The notes below the pieces were generated by a model that worked only from the letters and a program-made list of their open reading frames with translations, was not told the origin of the DNA and ran no database searches. Of a stretch of 64,000 nucleotides of DNA, positions 48,161-61,080 are shown in pieces. Source of the DNA: Botryllus schlosseri (lineage: Eukaryota). The first letter of the stretch is position 1. Every line of letters begins with the position of its first letter. The DNA lies in contig CM119371.1 in the NCBI GenBank assembly GCA_051294905.1, positions 24,430,001 through 24,494,000 on the forward strand, read 5' to 3'. The position numbers were made by a program, and so were the translations under genes.

Positions 48161-49049
48161 ACTAAACAGGAAATTCACTAATCCGCAGTGCATTGTGCGA
48201 TTTTGAAAACCAGATGTTGGCGGTTGTATTTTGACCTGTGTGACCCACTAAATACGTCCGTTTTGGAAATTCGGAGCGCGCACTATCGTATCGATTATTC
48301 CACTAATCCAGTCGGTGCTATTACATTCAGCAGTATTCAGTATTCAGCAGCGACACGAAAAGCGACCAACAAATAACCGCGCTCGTAAATTAACACTTCA
48401 AAAAGTGTAAAATAGATTGCAAATCCAGCGATCGCTGACAAGATAATGTCTCGGGCATAACCATTTTTAGTGACTTGGTGTTACAAACATACCGATCGCT
48501 CACGCGGTAAAATTTTAGTAATCAGTTTGTCACAGAACTTGATTTCGCTGGTAAGATTTAATAAATACCGACTAACAGAACCATCAGTGTGGGTAACTTG
48601 AATAGCAACAAATTGTCACTTATTTCCGCCCTAACCCTAATCCTTTGTGAGATTGCCACATACTCAAATAGATGCGAAATAATTGTAAAATCATACAATC
48701 TTTTTAGGAATATTACTTGACTTGACCAACTTTCGGCTCTGTTTTCGATTTCCACACAGTCGCTATAAGTTTCCACGCTTCTAGAATAGGATTGACTTTA
48801 GACACGTCATAAGAATCATGGTAATATTCAATCAATGTGTCAACCCAGCAAACACTCGATGTCCAGCTGACTCCCGGTGGAATAGCTGGCAGGATATCCT
48901 GTTACTTCCGGCCGTTACCTCCCTGGAGTGGGTTTGTCGACAACTAGAGACGTCCTGTCCACTCGCTGAGTACGTCCGCAATGACGTGCTGTGGACATGG
49001 AGAGACTCGTCATGGACGAGTCTGACCTAGCCTGGACGTCACGTGGTTC

Positions 49050-49180
49050 CCTATGGATGCGCCTGACGTACTGTGGACATGACGCCACTTCCTATGGACA
49101 CGCTTGACGTACTGTGGACATGACGTCACTCCCTATGGACACGCCTGACGTACTGTGGACATGACGCCACTCCCTATGGA
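49050..49180. repeat. 41-bp minisatellite (~3 copies), probably the subterminal array of an element beginning CCCAGCAAAC at ~48844
   Basis: CCTATGGA recurs at 49050, 49091, 49132 and 49173. Confidence 0.8.
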
Positions 49181-50852
49181 AGTGTCATTCGGCCCCTTTA
49201 TCATCTCTACTCCACACCTGGTTCAACGCCTCACGACTAACAACATGGGATACAACATCATATCTTCTCACACACAGCGTATATTGGGTGAGTGGGGAAT
49301 GAAACTGGCAAAATACAACTACGATATTGGTCATTATCAACGAAACTACAACTATCTAATTTACGAAACACAAAATGTGAAATAAGGCGAGAACTACTAC
49401 CCCTTAACACAGTCAAGGCTGAAGTAAAAAATCATATTGCGACAAGCAATCACAGAAAATGTGTCACAGGAGTTTAGCAAACAGCAACTGCTAATACCAC
49501 TCAAACTAATGACAAATAGTCAAAGTAAAAAAGCATTAATTACATAAAAAAGGTGTCACAGGAATATAAGACACTGCAACTGTTGGGACAACTCGAAGCT
49601 AATGGATCGGTCCATGTGCCTAAGATTGATGAAATGAAAGAATGGTATCGCAGGAATAAAGTAACCGCAACAATTTAAAACGAGCATTACAAAAAGCGTT
49701 CAGTAAAAATTCACTCTGCAAGAAGTAAATCAATGCACCGTTTGCAGATGTCGAGTGCCTATTCTTTTTCTTCGTCAATCACAAGTGGCTGCACCTAAAC
49801 GTTTTTTCTCGGCGCTTGTGGCTGAAATATATACAGGAATGTCAGTGAATTCCGTATGTTGCCTATTTCTGCTCGAAGTAGTTATACAACGCCTTGGAAA
49901 GTGCTACATATGCTTCACTACAGATTTACGTTACTTACCGGTACGTGTCTGCTTGAGAACTAACTCCTGTTCGACGAAGACCACTTCTCGAGTACTTATC
50001 AACTTATATTTCTACTTCCACTTGAAATAATCTTGACATGCCTTGAAAATTGCTACTTCTACTTCAGTTGAAATTTATGATGTTACTTCTACTTCAGCTT
50101 AAGTACCAAAAACGACTACTTTGACTTCGGCTACCCATGTTCGGACCATTACATGGTAAAAGAATGAAACATTACAACCCAATCTACCATTTTCAAACAA
50201 CTCGAGTACCTTTCAACTTCAATTTCAAATTGGAGTAGTTTTAATATACTTCGTAAATCATTACATACTCCAGTATAAATTCCTGTTACTTCTACTTCCA
50301 CTAGAGTCCCAACGTTGAATACTTTAATTTGTTAAATGCCACTTACGGTTATATGCAAAAATCAAGCGACACCTCGACCAAATTTACGACATCACACTAA
50401 CGGCTTCCTTGAGGTAGGTTTAACATGTCTTGTAAACCACTACATATACTTCACTAGAAATTATGTATTACTTGAGCAGTACTGACTACTTTTACTTCGG
50501 CTACCCATGTTGGCAAGAAGCCAAATTCCATTACATTAGGGCTGTCAAACATACAGACCGCCCAGCAATTCTGCATAGATTGAACAATGCTTGTTTGATG
50601 CAATGCAACGTTTGAAATTTCCGTGTGATGCAATGCAACGTTTGAAATTTCCGTAAGAAATACTTCCATTAAATAATCCCTCAACACTGCAAATATCGAT
50701 TGCGGAAAAAATGCATATTGCGTTCCGAGTTCTATGGAAAAATTACCAAAACGGAAGCACAAACGCCAAAACGGAACTGATACATGCAAGTTACATGGTG
50801 AAGACAATAGTTTCACAAAAATATAATTACAATATCTGTTGTCGCACTAGTG

Positions 50853-51558: not shown

Positions 51559-52101
51559 CACTAGTGCATCACAAAAGACTCAAATGATCCCTGGCCTTGA
51601 GGGAAACCTGAATCACTATTCAAGACGATGAAGAAATTTTCAACGTCCGCGTTTACAGTAACATACTTTGTCTACCTCAACGCATACTCAGGTTTGCCGC
51701 AGTGTTCGAGTAAATTATAGGTAGCATAGAAAAATACCGACTTACATCATTGTTAGAAGAGCTACTGTTTTATTGATTTTAACTGTATTTTTCCGCCAAA
51801 TCACCATATTATTGACAATTCCATTGTTTGCGAATATAGGTGCAGCTAGAATAGAACCTATATGATCCGAAATCGCGAAATTTTTACAAAGTTAATGAGT
51901 TATCAGCACACTGAAGGGATTTAAACAGATTTAAAAGCAAAACCAAAAAGGCACAGTATGACGCAAAAATGAAAATCACAGACCATGAAATTCGCAATGT
52001 ATCAATGGCAACAATAACAAACTACGAAGTATACGGACATACGGTACTCTGGTAGCAGCACAATTTGTAAATAAACAATTACACAAACGGAACAACACGC
52101 A

Positions 52102-52555
52102 CTAATGAGAAATTTGTAGGTTATAGAGGAAATCTTTCTGTCTGCATAAAATAGGTATGCTCAACTGAATAATAGTAGACTCCAACACTTTTAAATGAAA
52201 CACAGACCTACCACGCGCAATGACAGTGAACATATTGTCATCATAGTGCTGTGCACAGGCAAGGTTTTCGCTCAGATGCTGACCGATTGACGAAGCATAT
52301 GCTTGGTAATCATCATAGCAGTCTGTTTTTCCAGCCAATTTGCACCGACGTGCGAGCTCCGTGCGATCATTTGCGCATGTTTTTGACCGAATCAATTTTG
52401 GGATATGCTGCTTAATACGCTCAAACAATCTTTGAGATGTACGTCCTACATACCTACTATCACAGTGGCACTTGTATTGGTAAACAACATTACTTGCATC
52501 AAAGGCAGGAAGTACATCTTTTCGAGAGTTGGGTAACAAGGGTTTCGTCGTGTAC
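52102..52555 (-). pseudogene. Penelope-like GIY-YIG endonuclease remnant, left arm
   Basis: YTTKPLLPNSRKDVLP...VVYQYKCHCDSRYVGRT...SSIGQHL...LESTIIQ...LCRQ; separated from its upstream sequence by the LTR insertion. Confidence 0.85.
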
Positions 52556-52937
52556 TGTTTCTGCGCGGCAGTCTGAATCCTGCGCTGTCGATTAGAGGCG
52601 CAGAAGCCTGTCTATGGGGTTATCTACGGATGCTAATCGTTGTAATTCATACACGTGATCCATGACTTTAATAACACAATAGCACGCCCAACTTGATGAT
52701 GATAGCTGACACATAGCACAGCAACAGCAACAGCAACATACAGCCGGCGAACGTAACAGAATCAAGATAAACGTAACTAAAGTAAGATTTACAATTAATT
52801 TTGCGTCAACGTAAATAACCAACAAATGGTGGTTCGCAGATGCTTTATATAGCGGTAAGAACAGCCTATCTGAAAAGGCTTGATTACAAATGATTACTAA
52901 AATCAGGATTAACAAATGAATTGCGCAAGTGCAAACA

Positions 52938-52948
52938 CTCCCCCATTT
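52938..52948 (-). promoter_or_regulatory. Polypurine tract (second copy 54476-54486)
   Basis: Minus strand AAATGGGGGAG directly precedes the TG of the LTR. Confidence 0.8.
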
Positions 52949-55559
52949 GACTGATCCCAGTCAACAGAATTATAAATGTAATACACGGTCCGAATCACTC
53001 AAATCATCATCCACATAGGCAAAGTGAGATTGTACAAGGCAAAGTCAGATTGTACAATGACCAACATACAAAGAACTGCTGAACCTCCGATCCAAAATAC
53101 ATTCTATAGATATCACCCTAAATAGTAGAAAGGCGTTCACCAGCTCTACAAGCGATGAGAATGAATCACTTTTTAAATGGTAGGGTGGCGTTCGACATCT
53201 CTACAGGCGAGAAGAATAAATCATTTGGAATAAATATGGAAGCAGTCAGCAACTCTACACAAGCGATGATAATAGATCACTTTGAATTGGTAACGAGGCG
53301 TTCAGCATGTCTACAAGCGACGAGAATATATCACTATGAATGAACGCAGACAATCGAACGCGACTCAACTTGGACAGTTTCACTTAGGCGCGTGATGATG
53401 ACTCTCGATGTCGGATGAATCGTATCACACTCTGGAAAATTCGTCACCTTCAGAGAAGTCGAAATAATCTTAGAGGCGTCCCCGCAACGTGCAATAGCTC
53501 GAAATGAATATTCCGGAATCATAACAACATTTCTGGCATCGAAAGGTAGAAATTCTTCAAATAGCCGAATTCTCCTTTCGATGCGAGGTGCCGGACACAC
53601 ATCTTCTCGACCATCTGCTGCCTTGAATACCAATCCGCTTCATCGTCAGGTTCAGTTCTCAATCATCTCCGAGAGGCCGTTTCAATCTTCCGCATCCAAC
53701 GTTTGTGCATTTCTGTCGGCAACTGTGACTCAAGCACCCGAGTGAATATGGTCCCTGGTGATATCATCTGCAGAGAGAAGAATATACTCTCCACGCAGTT
53801 GCGCTGCCATCTTTGCAATGCTCATGAATGTGGCAGCCATGCAATTGATTCGACTTTCAGACAAACGGAGAATGCTGTAGACAAGATCAACGCGTTGTCG
53901 GAATCCGGAAACTGAACTGACGGAATGAAACTGAGCTCCTGATTGGCGAGACAGTGAACATAGACTGTGGAAACATCGCAATCGTCCGCTTCGTCCAAGA
54001 GGAAAACGACCTCTTCAATGTAGAGAACATTCGACGGCAATCTTCCATCAGCGAATTGATTGTAGATTGCAAATTAATTGTAAATTGTTTCTGCGCGGCA
54101 GTTTGAATCTTGCGCTGCCGATTATAGGCGCAGAAGGCTGTCTATGGGGTTATCTACGGATGCTAATCGTTGTAATTCATACACGTGATCCATGACTTTA
54201 ATAACACAATAGCTTGCGCAACTTGATGATAGCTGACACTCAGCACAGCAACAGCAACATACGGCCGACGAACGTAACAGAATTAAGATTAACGTAAGCA
54301 AGGAGCCAAAGTAAGTTAAGTAAGATTTACAATTAATTTTGCGTCAACGTGAATAACCAATGAATGGTGGCTCGCAGACGCTTTATATAGCGGTAAGAAC
54401 AGCCTATCTGAAAAGGCTTGATTACAAATGATTACTAAAATCAGGATTAACAAATGAAATGCGCAAGCGCGAACACTCCCCCATTTGACTGATCCCAGTC
54501 AACAGAATTGTCAATGTAATACACGTTCCGAATCACTCGAATCATCATCCACATTAGGCAAAGTGAGACTGTACAAGGCAAAGTCAGATTGTACAATGAC
54601 CAACATACAAAGAGCTGATGAACCTCCGATCCAAAATACATTCTATATATATCACCTTAAATAGTAGAAAGGCGTTCACCAGCTCTACAAGCGATGAGAA
54701 TGAATCACTTTTTAAATGGTAGGGTGGCGTTCGACATCTCTACAGGCGAGAAGAATAAATTATTTGGAATAAATATGGAAGCAGTCAGCAACTCTACACA
54801 AGCGATGATAATAGATCACTTTGAATTGGTAACGAGGCGTTCAGCATGTCTACAAGCGATGAGAATAAATCACTATGAATGAACGGATTGAACGCAGACA
54901 ATCGAACGCGACTCAACCCTGACACTATGGACAGTCTCACTTAGGCGCGTGATGATGACTGTCGATGTCGGATGAATCGTATCACAATCTCGAAAATTCG
55001 TCACCAACGGAGAAGTCGAAATAATCTTGGAGGCGTCCTCGCAACGTGCAACAGCTCGAAATGAATATTCCGGAATCATAACAATATTTCCGGCATTGCT
55101 CGGTAGAAGTTCTTCAAATAGCCGAATTCTCCTTTCGATGCGAGGTGCCTGACACAAATCTAACAGATGATGTGCGTCAATACCATAAGGGAACGGTAGC
55201 GAGGGCGAAACTGAAAGGACTGCGCAGAGGAATGAATGTCTGTGCAGATAAATTGCTCCGTCTTGACCCTCTGCTGCCTTGAATGCCAATCCGCTCGATC
55301 ATCTTCAAGAGGTTGTTTCAATCTTCCGCATCCCATGTTTGTGCATTTCTGTCGGCAACTGTGACTCAAGCACCCGAGTGAATACGGTCCCTGGTGATAT
55401 CATCTGGAGAGAGAAGAATATACTCTCCATGCAGTTGCGCTGCCATCTTTGCAATGATCCTGAATGTGGAAGCCATGCAATCGATGCGACTTTCAGACAA
55501 ACGGAGAATGCTGTAGACAAGATCAACGCGTTGTCGGAATATGGACTGAACTGACGGAA

Positions 55560-55602
55560 CCATTTGTTTGTTATTTACGTTGACGCAAAATTAATTGTAA
55601 AT
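55560..55602 (-). promoter_or_regulatory. Putative self-complementary primer-binding site
   Basis: Abuts the CA end of the 5' LTR. It is 42/43 complementary to LTR positions 55834-55876. There is no TGG-starting tRNA PBS. Confidence 0.7.
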
Positions 55603-56209
55603 TGTTTCTGCGCGGCAGTCTGAATCCTGCGCTGCCGATTAGAGGCGCAGAAGCCTGTCTATGAGGTTATCTACGGATGCTAATCGTTGTAATTCATACA
55701 CGTGATCCATGACTTTAATAACACAATAGCACGCCCAACTTGATGATGATAGCTGACACATAGCACAGCAACAGCAACAGCAACATACAGCCGGCGAACG
55801 TAACAGAATCAAGATAAACGTAACTAAAGTAAGATTTACAATTAATTTTGCGTCAACGTAAATAACCAACAAATGGTGGTTCGCAGATGCTTTATATAGC
55901 GGTAAGAACAGCCTATCTGAAAAGGCTTGATTACAAATGATTACTAAAATCAGGATTAACAAATGAATTGCGCAAGCGCAAACATGTACACTACATGCGT
56001 GTTAACGCTGTAATAGCAACGGTGAACAGCCGATTTAATAAGCTTTTCAAATCGGCTAAACACATTACCTAGCCAAGGTAGGTGTAAAAATGCCGGGCAT
56101 TTTTCTGGGCCATATTTTGGAGCTGTATCCGATTTTTTCAATACCCTAGAGATGGAGCATTTTAATATGTGGTCCGGATAGCCATTTTTGGAGAGAATCA
56201 AGTGGATAT

Positions 56210-56671
56210 CATGTAGTGTACACGACGAAACCCTTGTTACCCAACTCTCGAAAAGATGTACTTCCTGCCTTTGATGCAAGTAATGTTGTTTACCAATACA
56301 AGTGCCACTGTGATAGTAGGTATGTAGGACGTACATCTCAAAGATTGTTTGAGCGCATTAAGCAGCATATCCCAAAATTGATTCGGTCAAAAACATGCGC
56401 AAATGATCGCACGGAGCTCGCCTGTCAGTGCAAATTGGCTGGAAAAACAGACTGCTATGATGATTACCAAGCATATGCTTCGTCAATCGGTCAGCATCTG
56501 AGCGAAAACCTTGCCTGTGCACAGCACTATGATGACAATGTGTTCACTGTCATTGCGCGTGGTAGGTCTGTGTTTCATTTAAAAGTGTTGGAGTCTACTA
56601 TTATTCAGTTGAGCAAACCTATTTTATGCAGACAGAAAAATTTCCTCTATAACCTACAAATTTCTCATTAG
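56210..56671 (+). pseudogene. Penelope-like GIY-YIG endonuclease remnant, right arm
   Basis: 151-aa ORF nearly identical to the left arm, followed by 3' UTR, hammerhead motif and AATAAA. Confidence 0.85.
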
Positions 56672-56857
56672 TGCGTGTTGTTTCGTTTGTGTAATTGTTT
56701 ATTTACAAATTGTGCTGCTACTATAGTACCGTATGTCCGTATACTTCGTAGTTTGTTATTGTTGCCATTGATATGGTCTGTGATTTTGAGTGTTGCGTCA
56801 TACTGTGCCTTTTTGGTTTTGCTTTTAAATCTGTTTAAATCCCTTCAGTGTGCCGAT

Positions 56858-59059: not shown

Positions 59060-59460
59060 TGTGACATAAGTACAATTTCAGCATCGGTATTTGCAATAAA
59101 GCCTAAAAATTAGAGTTGCACCTTTTCGCGATTTATGCAGCTATTCGCGCAGATTTGCCGCATTTGCTATATCTGAAGTAGAATTTCAGCGTCGTTATTC
59201 ACTATAAGCCGAGAAATGCACCTTCGCGCAATTTATATAGACAGACGCATTAACTTTGCTGCATCTGAAGTAGAATTTCAGCGTCGTTATTTGTTATAAG
59301 CCGAGAAATGTAAATTCCCGCAATTTTTACAGGCTCACACAGTTTGCTGCGTCTGAAGTAGAATTTCAGCGTCGTTGTTTGCTATAAGCCGGGAAATTAG
59401 AGTCGCTGCTTCGCGCAATTTTTACAGGCAGTCTCACACACTTTGCTGCATCTGAGCTTC
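59060..59460. repeat. ~90-bp degenerate tandem repeat (about 4 copies)
   Basis: TCTGAAGTAGAATTTCAGCGTCGTT...CTATAAGCCGAGAAAT recurs. Confidence 0.8.
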
Positions 59461-59967
59461 ATACTAATACATGCATAATTTTTGCATGACGAGAACACGG
59501 GTAATTAAATCATCAATAAACGCCGGAGGCGAGTCATTTAAACCTTGTTGCTAGATAATACCGCTTTCGGCTACAACAAAGTTGCCCTGCAACAAAAAAA
59601 TAGAAGCCCTAATGATCATGCAGAGAGTTCAAAAATGCTCCACAATTCTTGACATATAATATACTGAGCATATAATAAGCTGACAAAACCTATACTTGAG
59701 TACTCCGAAATTTTCAAGTACTTTACCTTCACACGACGTTTTTGTAAAATGAATACTAATTTTAATGAAAAAAGTAAAAATTATGTACTCAAGTAGGTTG
59801 TTGTCTACACGCACCAACTACTCGAGTGTTTATGACACAGGAATGATTCATTAAGTATAGCGCAAGCAGGCTAAACCTATACTTGAGTACTCTAAAATGT
59901 ACAAGAACTTCGCTATGTACTCCACGTAAAAAGTGACTAGATTTTAGACTACTTTATTGATTTTTGA

Positions 59968-61080
59968 AGTTGCGCAAATACCATAAACTTTGCTTGCTTT
60001 CAGAGCTGGCAACTAAATGCAACACGGAATTTACGCAAAAGTCTCTATTCTGAAAATTTTATCAAGGTAATAGTATAAAAACTTATACTTGAGCACTACG
60101 AAATGTACAAGTACTTTACCTTTACACGACGTTTTTGTAAAATGAATACTAATTTTATTGAAAAAATAAAAAAATAAAAAAGAGCGAAAAATTACATTTT
60201 ATCCCGGAACGCAACAAGAAAAATCGTATGAATTTGTAAACTACTTATTCATGACATAATAATAATTCTACTTGTATACTATTTCATATTTTGTAACAAT
60301 TTTAGTAGTACAAAATTCGGAATATAAACTAATCGAAAAATTCGGTAACCCATTTCGCATAGGCTATGCATACAAATGAGGAAAGTTACATCAACGCGTG
60401 TAAACTAATTGCATTATGTAGCTTGTAATTCATGCAAGTTTCGAAACTTCTACACCGACTCTTTTAAAGTAGATAGAATCGAAAAAACTAATCGAAAATA
60501 TTTACGAAGTTTGGATGCGGCATATTTGGGCTTTTAAAAATTATTCATACTCATGATTCGAAATACTTTTAACTAACTTATGTTTTCGACATAAGATAAG
60601 CGTGAAGTGTACAAATTTCGACGTTGCGCAAATACCACAAACTTTGCTTGCTTTCAGAGCCGGCACTAAATGCAAGACACACTTTACGCAAAACTTGCTA
60701 TTCTGAAAATTTTGACAGGGTAATGGTTTAAAAACTTATGCTTGAGCACTACGAAATGTACAAGTACTTTATCTTTACACGACGTTTTTTGTAAAATAAA
60801 TACTAATTTTATTGAAAAAATAAAAAATAAAAAAGAGCGAAAAATTACATTTTATCCCGGAACGCAACAATAAAAATCGTATGAATTTGTAAACTACTTA
60901 TTCATGACATGATAATAATTCTACTTGTACACTTTTTCCCATTTTATAACACTATAAGTAGTACTTAACAGTTTCAGTTTTAAATAAAATACGGAATATA
61001 AACTAATCGAAAAATTCGGTAACCAATTTCGCGTAGGCTATGCATACAAATGAGGAAAATTACATCAACGCGTGTTAAAC
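59968..61080. repeat. Local direct duplication (~450-bp segments, ~655 bp apart)
   Basis: GTTGCGCAAATACCA...CATCAACGCGTGT occurs at about 59969-60401 and 60623-61075. Confidence 0.8.

Follow-up and report, generated by a model that had tools for sequence, protein, structure and literature searches.

Putative self-priming of BEL/Pao retrotransposons in Botryllus schlosseri, examined from a non-coding three-LTR array

Which RNA primes minus-strand DNA synthesis in a retrotransposon when the sequence next to its 5′ long terminal repeat (LTR) is complementary to that same LTR? The question is raised by a 64,000-nucleotide (nt) stretch of the Botryllus schlosseri genome (assembly GCA_051294905.1, contig CM119371.1, positions 24,430,001 to 24,494,000 of the forward strand), here called the window. 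On its minus strand lies a defective, non-coding LTR retrotransposon array, ordered LTR, internal region, LTR, internal region, LTR, from 55984 to 52556. An earlier reading of the letters of the window, which we call the sequence-only reading, had proposed an element that needs no transfer RNA (tRNA) and primes itself with an unusually long duplex. Our analysis supports this in part: the proposal appears right in kind (self-priming, no tRNA site) and wrong in emphasis, the long duplex being an accident of one copy. The BEL/Pao lineages sampled in this genome lack a tRNA-type primer site and probably start minus-strand DNA synthesis by self-priming of the Tf1 type.

Directly after the 5′ LTR (LTR1; 55603–55984, minus strand; 382 nt, TGTT...AACA, delimited from the sequence and by repeat finding), and with no gap, 43 nt (55602 to 55560, minus strand) are complementary at 42 of 43 positions to LTR positions 55876 to 55834. 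The sole mismatch places A55569 opposite G55867. Repeat finding returned the same pairing as inverted-repeat arms at 55559–55602 and 55834–55877 (44 nt, 98% complementary). T55834, the 3′ end of the LTR segment, pairs with A55602, the first base past the LTR, and the segment (55834–55876, minus strand) starts 22 nt downstream of the first T (55898) of a TATA box, TATATAAA (55891–55898, minus strand). Past the middle LTR (LTR2), a candidate canonical primer-binding site of 15 nt (54071–54085, minus strand) is perfectly complementary, read from 54085 to 54071, to positions 54339 to 54325. The polypurine tract AAATGGGGGAG stands directly before LTR2 (54486 to 54476) and before LTR3, the 3′ LTR (52948 to 52938). 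The 42/43 match, its distance from the TATA box, its placement directly beside the LTR end, the shorter pairing at LTR2 and the polypurine tract had all been described in the sequence-only reading, and each was confirmed. Chance is ruled out: when the LTR was shuffled 1000 times with its dinucleotides kept, no perfect complement reached the length of the observed 33-nt or 15-nt run, in a test whose window LTR had its start placed 9 nt too far out. When the leader is folded, the 15-nt duplex is part of the ensemble, with pair probabilities of 0.78–1.0.

The 15-nt form is the rule in the family. In the assembly that contains the window (495 Mb, 219 contigs), we found at least 40 LTR copies of the family (40 LTR-length matches scored among 230 candidates). 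Thirteen of these 40 continue to exactly 15 nt past the LTR and then end, and the window copy is the only one among them to match through 43 nt. The pattern of LTR plus 43 nt occurs once in the genome; four matches at 3 mismatches are the R segment of LTRs, on the opposite strand. The LTR end followed by the 15 nt and the normal leader (GAAACA+ATTTACAATTAATTT+GCAAT) was present at 21 junctions genome-wide, allowing up to 3 mismatches. The 43-nt form is one aberrant copy among the 22 LTR/leader junctions of the family, and the other 21 carry its first 15 nt only. The 43 nt can be divided into a candidate primer-binding core, ATTTACAATTAATTT (55588–55602, minus strand), and a 28-nt extension of the complementarity (55560–55587, minus strand), which is found in this copy only and stands in place of 145 nt of normal leader (compare 54070 to 53926). 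Opposite the core, the family-wide 15 nt of the LTR segment, AAATTAATTGTAAAT (55834–55848), which occupy positions 137–151 of the window LTR, are the proposed 3′ part of a self-primer. The long duplex had been offered as a property of the system; it belongs to this one non-coding copy, and the duplex of the family is 15 nt. A one-off inverted duplication had been named as one of the outcomes that would undo the proposal, and here the result is divided: the 43-nt form is unique, whereas the 15-nt pairing is kept by the family at the 21 other junctions.

Most copies of the family are LTR pairs about 1.6 kb apart with no open reading frame (ORF), and the TATATAAA box is conserved in all 46 of the listed family LTR segments. 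Two loci considered as coding copies of the family, L031 and L032, were rejected; their extra DNA consists of nested insertions, by eye a C-terminal hAT-like ORF and a LINE-like ORF. The polypurine tract joined to the LTR start motif has 62 occurrences in the genome, and the search for it exposed another non-coding family, here named family 2, with an LTR of about 450 nt and a unit of about 1.65 kb. The family of the window element is called family 1 below.

Coding relatives and paired changes

The window element contains no gag-pol ORF with Pao-type domains (DUF1759, Peptidase_A17, integrase, DUF5641); only its relatives L044 and L039 have such ORFs. It is therefore classed as a non-autonomous derivative or dependent and not as a coding member. 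At L039, a Pao ORF with Peptidase_A17 (E 7e-44) is followed, after about 30 nt, by the shared polypurine tract and then an LTR of family 2. A genome search with this ORF returned many BEL/Pao copies with open frames of 1700–2100 amino acids (aa). Four copies that are 91–92% identical to it have LTR pairs of 308–407 nt, 99.7–100% identical, and a single long ORF each. The L044 ORF, of 1907 aa, carries SAP, DUF1759, Peptidase_A17, Integrase_H2C2, rve and DUF5641. In coding copies, the LTR has ...GCCGCGCAGAAACA at its end and ATTTACAA comes next, an arrangement shared with the window element, and both kinds of element have 5-bp target duplications. In A64_C7, whose pol is 64% identical, the LTR agrees with the window LTR at 227 of 298 aligned positions, with conserved blocks at the termini, the TATA box (TATATAAAGCGTCTG), the R segment (AATTAATTGTAAATC) and the U5 end; its site after the LTR is ATTTACAATTAATTA. 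The search for autonomous copies that had been suggested for this element led to coding relatives, and their domains are those of BEL/Pao, a superfamily assignment that the sequence-only reading had left blank. Membership of the Tf1/sushi group would go with a Ty3/gypsy-type pol, and the coding relatives carry BEL/Pao domains, which places them outside that group. On these comparisons, the window element is related to BEL/Pao elements of this genome, is non-autonomous and would depend on them.

Some further observations concern these loci. The segment L039:7282–8600 (G000:C3) is an internally deleted derivative and connects non-coding family 2 to the coding BEL/Pao elements. The BEL/Pao polyprotein at L044:3166–8886 (G000:C3) starts with a SAP domain (residues 28–62, E 1.5e-07), and PF02037 is also listed for several database homologues of the BEL/Pao polyprotein. 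ORFs adjoining a family-2 polypurine tract at L038 were set aside as those of an unrelated non-LTR element (Exo_endo_phos, RVT_1). A protein search returned many homologues from insects, a coral and a sponge, and a metagenome scan gave no relatives beyond this genome.

For each element with both LTRs identified, we recorded the longest perfect complement between a window offset 0–5 nt past the 5′ LTR and the element's own LTR. Consequently, L045 (1720-aa ORF), in whose locus no LTR pair was found, was left out. All nine coding BEL/Pao copies tested (A92 L044/L048 and L047, A64_C7, A64_C6, A45_C16, A33_C10, C11_33, C3_36 and C1_37) and both non-coding families have 10–15 nt complementary to their own LTR at an offset of 0–3 nt. 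The site of L046 is identical to that of L044. For C1_37, the script placed the LTR boundary 1 nt away from its true position, and we took the 10-nt match from the sequence itself. The offset is 0 in six of the nine coding copies and in both non-coding families; the remaining three coding copies have 2–3 nt. The window family has a duplex of 15 nt, and relatives have one of 10–11 nt. A complement of the observed length was reached in 0–8 of 1000 shuffles per element. Except among close relatives, the complement to the LTRs of other lineages is shorter than that to the element's own. There are at least 11 different sites in this one genome, each matched by its own LTR.

Site and LTR segment also change together between sister elements. 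In one set, the sites ATTCACAATA, ATTCGCAATA, ATTCGCGATA and ATTCACAAGA correspond to the LTR segments TATTGTGAAT, TATTGCGAAT, TATCGCGAAT and TCTTGTGAAT. Three more sets follow the same pattern: the sites ATTTACAACG and ATTTATAACAA go with the segments CGTTGTAAAT and TTGTTATAAAT, the sites GTAAATACAG and GTAGATACAG with CTGTATTTAC and CTGTATCTAC, and the sites GTTAAAAAATC and GTTAAAAAATA with GATTTTTTAAC and TATTTTTTAAC. Covariation was assessed in an alignment of 12 leaders from six sub-lineages, with a structure of 15 + 8 pairs. A standard pair is formed in 91.3% of the 276 cells, compared with 33–41% when the partner is slid by 1–3 columns, and 13 of the 23 pairs have changed on both sides, compared with 1–4 in the slid controls. 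Neither the share of paired cells nor the covariation score was equalled by any of 500 shuffles. Of the 120 cells that belong to the ten pairs closest to the LTR, 119 are paired, and the base directly past the LTR segment is C in all 12 aligned leaders. A putative self-primer signature thus covaries across all BEL/Pao lineages sampled in this genome. The earlier claim of an LTR element that lacks a tRNA-type primer site and pairs with its own LTR in the geometry of priming has, in this form, become a trait of the family with compensatory changes across related lineages.

A second, shorter pairing lies in U5. There, TTCTGCGC (55652 to 55645) pairs with GCGCAGAA (55613 to 55606), giving an inverted repeat (55606–55652, minus strand) that stops 3 nt short of the LTR end. 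In the 12-leader alignment, 99% of the cells of this 8-bp stem are paired and three of its eight pairs have changed on both sides; for example, TTCTGCGC/GCGCAGAA becomes TTCGACGC/GCGTCGAA in family 2. In three related LTRs tested, an 8-bp stem was reached by 4–13 of 1000 shuffles. The predicted U5 stem covaries and is supported in the closer clade. A U5 inverted-repeat stem is reportedly part of Tf1 self-priming, going by the title of a 1998 paper by Lin and Levin.

The candidate primer and its rivals

We favor self-priming because a sequence of the size of a primer site adjoins U5, matches only its own LTR and changes with it, and because the U5 stem lies beside it. We infer the priming itself, the cutting of the RNA and where transcription starts. 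In this model, the transcript would fold back with its 5′ part, and the R segment would pair with the 10–15-nt site past the 5′ LTR, with the U5 inverted-repeat stem placed just upstream of the primer-binding site. The RNA would then be cut directly after the segment, between ...AAT and C, and its new 3′ end extended into U5. Later, the plus strand would copy the primer, and the site would be re-made from the R segment in each cycle. Such re-making would account for the perfect, sharply bounded complementarity in young copies. It would also explain a case in family 1, L008, in which both LTRs share an altered last base of the segment that the L008 site does not yet match.

The complementary segment is probably in R and not at the first nucleotide of the RNA because it lies downstream of the TATA box and upstream of a likely polyadenylation signal, ATTAAA (55714–55719, minus strand), provided that transcription starts upstream of the segment. 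In the window, the 15-nt segment is 50–64 nt past the TATA box and about 115 nt before ATTAAA. The window LTRs, F2_L040 and A92_L044 have this hexamer in much the same position; in four of the other LTRs it was not scored. Since the segment ends 64–87 nt past the TATA box, some 20–50 nt at the 5′ end of the primer would stay unpaired, unless transcription starts elsewhere. Tf1 differs, its primer being nt 1–11 of the transcript.

Several findings weigh against this reading. The distance of the segment's 3′ end from the TATA box is variable (64–87 nt), so either the 5′ tail of the primer varies or these TATA boxes are not promoters. The duplex starts 2–3 nt past the LTR in two of the deeper lineages. 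The 10-nt duplexes of F2_L040 and A92_L044 are not formed in the thermodynamic fold (pair probabilities 0–0.05), and the U5 stem in distant lineages is not above chance (30–908 of 1000 shuffles). The covariation test gave 16 further standard pair types, a number reached by 414 of 500 shuffles and thus not above chance. Within family 1, single-base variants of the site or the segment are uncompensated (L016/L026, L013/L022, L004/L021, L008); this is expected for mutations after insertion, yet it gives no within-family support for the pairing. The compensatory changes that the sequence-only reading had looked to as a check are therefore found across lineages and not inside the family. One bulk and one single-cell RNA run, with 36 and 79 reads, show no pile-ups of starts or ends, the reads being too few. 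Contigs from two RNA runs break at 55559 and 55588 and continue into the canonical leader, and they neither show nor exclude the 43-nt allele. Lastly, the tRNA comparison covers 20 genes of four anticodon types (Lys-TTT, Ala-TGC, Arg-TCG and Ser-GCT), with a longest complement to the sites of 5–8 nt.

These points bear on two other explanations. The complementarity could be an RNA structure with another role, such as packaging, dimerization, translation control or strand transfer, and minus-strand synthesis could have some other primer. Covariation tells us that the pairing is selected or copied but is silent on its role, the prediction for the 10-nt duplexes is that they do not form unaided, and the distance between segment and TATA box is not constant. 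Nevertheless, we regard this explanation as unlikely. The duplex adjoins the LTR end at an offset of 0–3 nt, a register that priming needs and a mere stem does not, and a site copied anew from the primer in each cycle would fit what all young copies show, a complementarity that is perfect and sharply bounded. No TGG-type site was seen beside the LTRs of coding copies, and the best match to the 20 tRNAs tested was 5–8 nt. This last result bears equally on a host tRNA, a tRNA fragment or another host RNA as the primer, with the LTR match incidental. The tRNA set is far from complete, and tRNA sites are reported for some BEL/Pao elements (Achilles, Max-element, GATE and diver). However, each of the 11 or more sites in one genome is matched by the LTR of its own element, and the LTRs of other lineages do not match it; the family-1 site has 2 G+C among its 15 nt and no TGG start. 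Paired changes specific to a lineage are not explained by a shared host primer, and we consider a host primer very improbable. For the proposed comparison with host tRNAs, the outcome is no match longer than 8 nt among the 20 genes, a set that is partial.

The tRNA model search gave 36,083 first-look candidates, of which 63 were scored and 20 compared with the sites; so large a first count may come from repeats derived from tRNAs. At C3:34.49–34.51 Mb of the same genome, tRNA-Lys genes are densely clustered. A tRNA gene search of the window itself found none.

The aberrant copy and its array

Self-priming with a 15-nt site leaves the 28-nt extension to be explained, and for this the structure of the array matters. 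It consists of three direct repeats of about 382–390 nt, separated by two non-coding internal regions of about 1.1 kb each. Internal region 1 (54476–55559, minus strand) has 54-nt tandem repeats at 54670–54880 and ends in the polypurine tract at 54476–54486. LTR2 (54086–54475, minus strand), a diverged subtype recognized by alignment to LTR1, is followed by internal region 2 (52938–54070, minus strand), with the canonical leader, 54-nt tandem repeats at 53131–53341 and the polypurine tract at 52938–52948. LTR3 (52556–52937, minus strand; 382 nt, TGTT...AACA), likewise recognized by alignment to LTR1, closes the array. LTR1 and LTR3 are identical at 379 of 382 positions, compared with 350 of 373 aligned positions and 26 gap columns for LTR2 against LTR1. 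The internal regions are alike, at 98% near the polypurine tract and 92–93% elsewhere. The three-LTR array is a mosaic, with outer LTRs of one subtype and a middle LTR of another. It could be a recombinational tandem like those of Tf1, or a transposed read-through transcript. In each internal region, the 54-nt tandem repeat has 3.9 copies with 68–69% matches.

A single 5-bp target-site duplication, GTACA, brackets the entire array, with its upstream copy at 55985–55989 and its downstream copy at 52551–52555 (both given on the minus strand, from the sequence). The uninterrupted target, CATGTAGTGTACACGACGAAACCC, is kept in an inverted copy of the host repeat near 56220–56245. With GTACA on both sides and CATGTAGTGTACACGACGAAACCC intact in the second host-repeat copy, this is therefore an integrated LTR element. 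Its structural features are those of an LTR retrotransposon: direct LTRs of the TG...CA type, a short target duplication, a polypurine tract and a primer site adjoining the 5′ LTR. The host repeat around the array is a 556-nt inverted repeat (98%; 52000–52555 and 56218–56773) in two head-to-head copies. A Pfam scan of ORFs in this flanking repeat, such as that at 56150–56671 on the plus strand, matched no family; a motif in that ORF is one that we take to be GIY-YIG-like, as in Penelope-like elements, an assignment unconfirmed by Pfam. An Rfam scan of 52400–56100 at E ≤ 1 matched no family. Other repeat arrays in the window, at 48982–49186, 59163–59429 and 59685–60964, have 41-nt units (at least four copies), units of about 90 nt (three copies) and direct repeats of 653–674 nt.

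In the aberrant copy, 28 further nucleotides of R have been copied in inverted orientation beside the 15-nt site, and 145 nt of leader have been replaced; this is confined to one non-coding copy. The register of the extension with the 15-nt site is exact, and its match to the outer-LTR subtype (43/44) is closer than that to the middle LTR (91%). None of the listed LTR copies of the family has the base with which the single mismatch would disappear. Two origins fit these data about equally well. In one, plus-strand strong-stop DNA would have read along a longer RNA primer that was not removed, as far as the 5′ end of that primer, and an irregular second transfer would have made the join 145 nt deeper in the leader. 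The 43 nt would then be a DNA copy of the whole primer, with 55876/55877 as its 5′ end, which suits the exact register of the extension and its closer match to the outer-LTR subtype. The Tf1 self-primer is reportedly not removed, according to a paper title known to us through reference lists. The extension also ends 22 nt past the TATA box, at CCATTT. However, the usual spacing between a TATA box and the start that it directs is about 30 nt, and the 22 nt counted here from the first T of TATATAAA fall short of it. The end point falls 6–9 nt upstream of such a start and is therefore not usable as a mapped RNA 5′ end. An initiator-like TCAGTT lies 5–6 nt further downstream at the homologous place in a coding relative, the 21 canonical junctions show no such read-through, and the overlap at the far junction is 1 nt only. 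We hold this origin to be possible, at somewhat less than an even chance.

The extension could equally have come from a DNA template switch between the 15-nt inverted repeats, a quasi-palindrome extension during replication or repair, possibly in the same recombination that made the array. This origin is silent on the length of the primer. It suits a copy that sits within a mosaic array, with near-identical outer LTRs and a gapped, diverged middle one, and a 145-nt loss coupled to a 28-nt templated gain would be typical of repair junctions. Passages of PMC11042837 describe how Tf1, which is self-primed, forms similar tandems, including hybrid ones, by single-strand annealing. Nothing specific speaks against it, except that an end near the TATA-proximal CCATTT would be a coincidence. 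To us it is close to an even prospect.

Known self-primers and significance

Self-priming as a mechanism is already known; what is new here, as far as we have seen, is the BEL/Pao superfamily and a probable primer segment inside R. BEL/Pao is the least studied of the three LTR superfamilies. The BEL/Pao surveys that we examined by term counts contain zero mentions of a primer site or a tRNA. In the open-access literature, we found no paper that links self-priming with BEL/Pao, a search to which older BEL papers in subscription journals do not belong. PMC6934838 names Tf1, Tf2 and a number of Ty3/gypsy elements of fungi and vertebrates as self-priming. In PMC6317226, plant Tcn1 and the Ty1/copia TAR lineage are given as predicted self-primers, in the part that sets the criterion for such a prediction at 10 or more nt complementary to the 5′ LTR and starting 0–5 nt past it. 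By that measure, the window family has 15 nt at offset 0 and this copy has 43 nt, beside a tRNA comparison that is partial.

The resemblance to Tf1/Tf2 and the Tf1/sushi group is considerable. In both cases there is no tRNA site, about 10–15 nt directly past the 5′ LTR can pair with a segment of the element itself that lies in R (probably so in the elements described here), and a U5 inverted-repeat stem lies beside the site. Tandem arrays with a shared middle LTR also occur in both; in the passages of PMC11042837 on this subject, Tf1 tandems, including hybrid ones, arise through single-strand annealing to resident copies at their primer-binding site, with primers copied into single-stranded DNA at the ends of the cDNA. 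The differences are that Tf1/sushi belongs to Ty3/gypsy whereas the coding relatives here have BEL/Pao pol domains, that the segment here is probably not at the first nucleotides of the RNA, where Tf1 uses nt 1–11, and that the duplex in the window family is 15 nt and is known from sequence alone. Tcn1 and TAR resemble our elements in being predicted by the same rule (at least 10 nt, 0–5 nt past the LTR), and self-priming is accordingly not limited to one superfamily (PMC6317226, in the portion on these lineages). They differ in being plant elements of the other two superfamilies. BEL/Pao elements are absent from that survey, as its relevant portion presents it, because BEL/Pao is a metazoan group.

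Within BEL/Pao itself, the reports vary. Achilles has a tRNA-Tyr site (PMC4580426, in the passage on that element). The corresponding passages of PMC2790888 give Tyr-GTA sites for Max-element and GATE and an Ile site for diver, and list roo and 3S18 with no site found. A BEL/Pao family of Anopheles has also been reported with a tRNA site. Achilles, Max-element and GATE, with their tRNA sites, would thus use another mode of priming than the elements described here, whereas roo and 3S18, of the same superfamily as the coding relatives, are listed with no tRNA site, which is what one would expect of self-primers. Non-autonomous LTR elements of Culex offer a different comparison: as described in parts of PMC3286476, they have internal tandem repeats and no master copy, and they share with the window element their short non-coding form, a sharp site past the 5′ LTR, a polypurine tract and a target duplication. 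The sites of the Culex elements are listed as complementary to tRNAs and the elements could not be placed in a class, whereas the site of the window element is self-complementary and coding relatives were found. A wider claim would be that self-priming from an R segment is the general mode of a large part of BEL/Pao, perhaps including roo and 3S18, and that the window copy keeps a whole RNA primer of about 43 nt as DNA and so gives the primer's 5′ end. We consider this joint claim doubtful.

If BEL/Pao lineages do self-prime, all three LTR superfamilies would include tRNA-independent members. This would bear on a proposal, set out in passages of PMC3601003, that hairpin priming is older than tRNA priming. 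Self-priming would also explain why annotation pipelines that look for tRNA sites only leave these elements with no primer site, and it may provide a simple sequence rule that connects non-coding LTR families with their coding partners.

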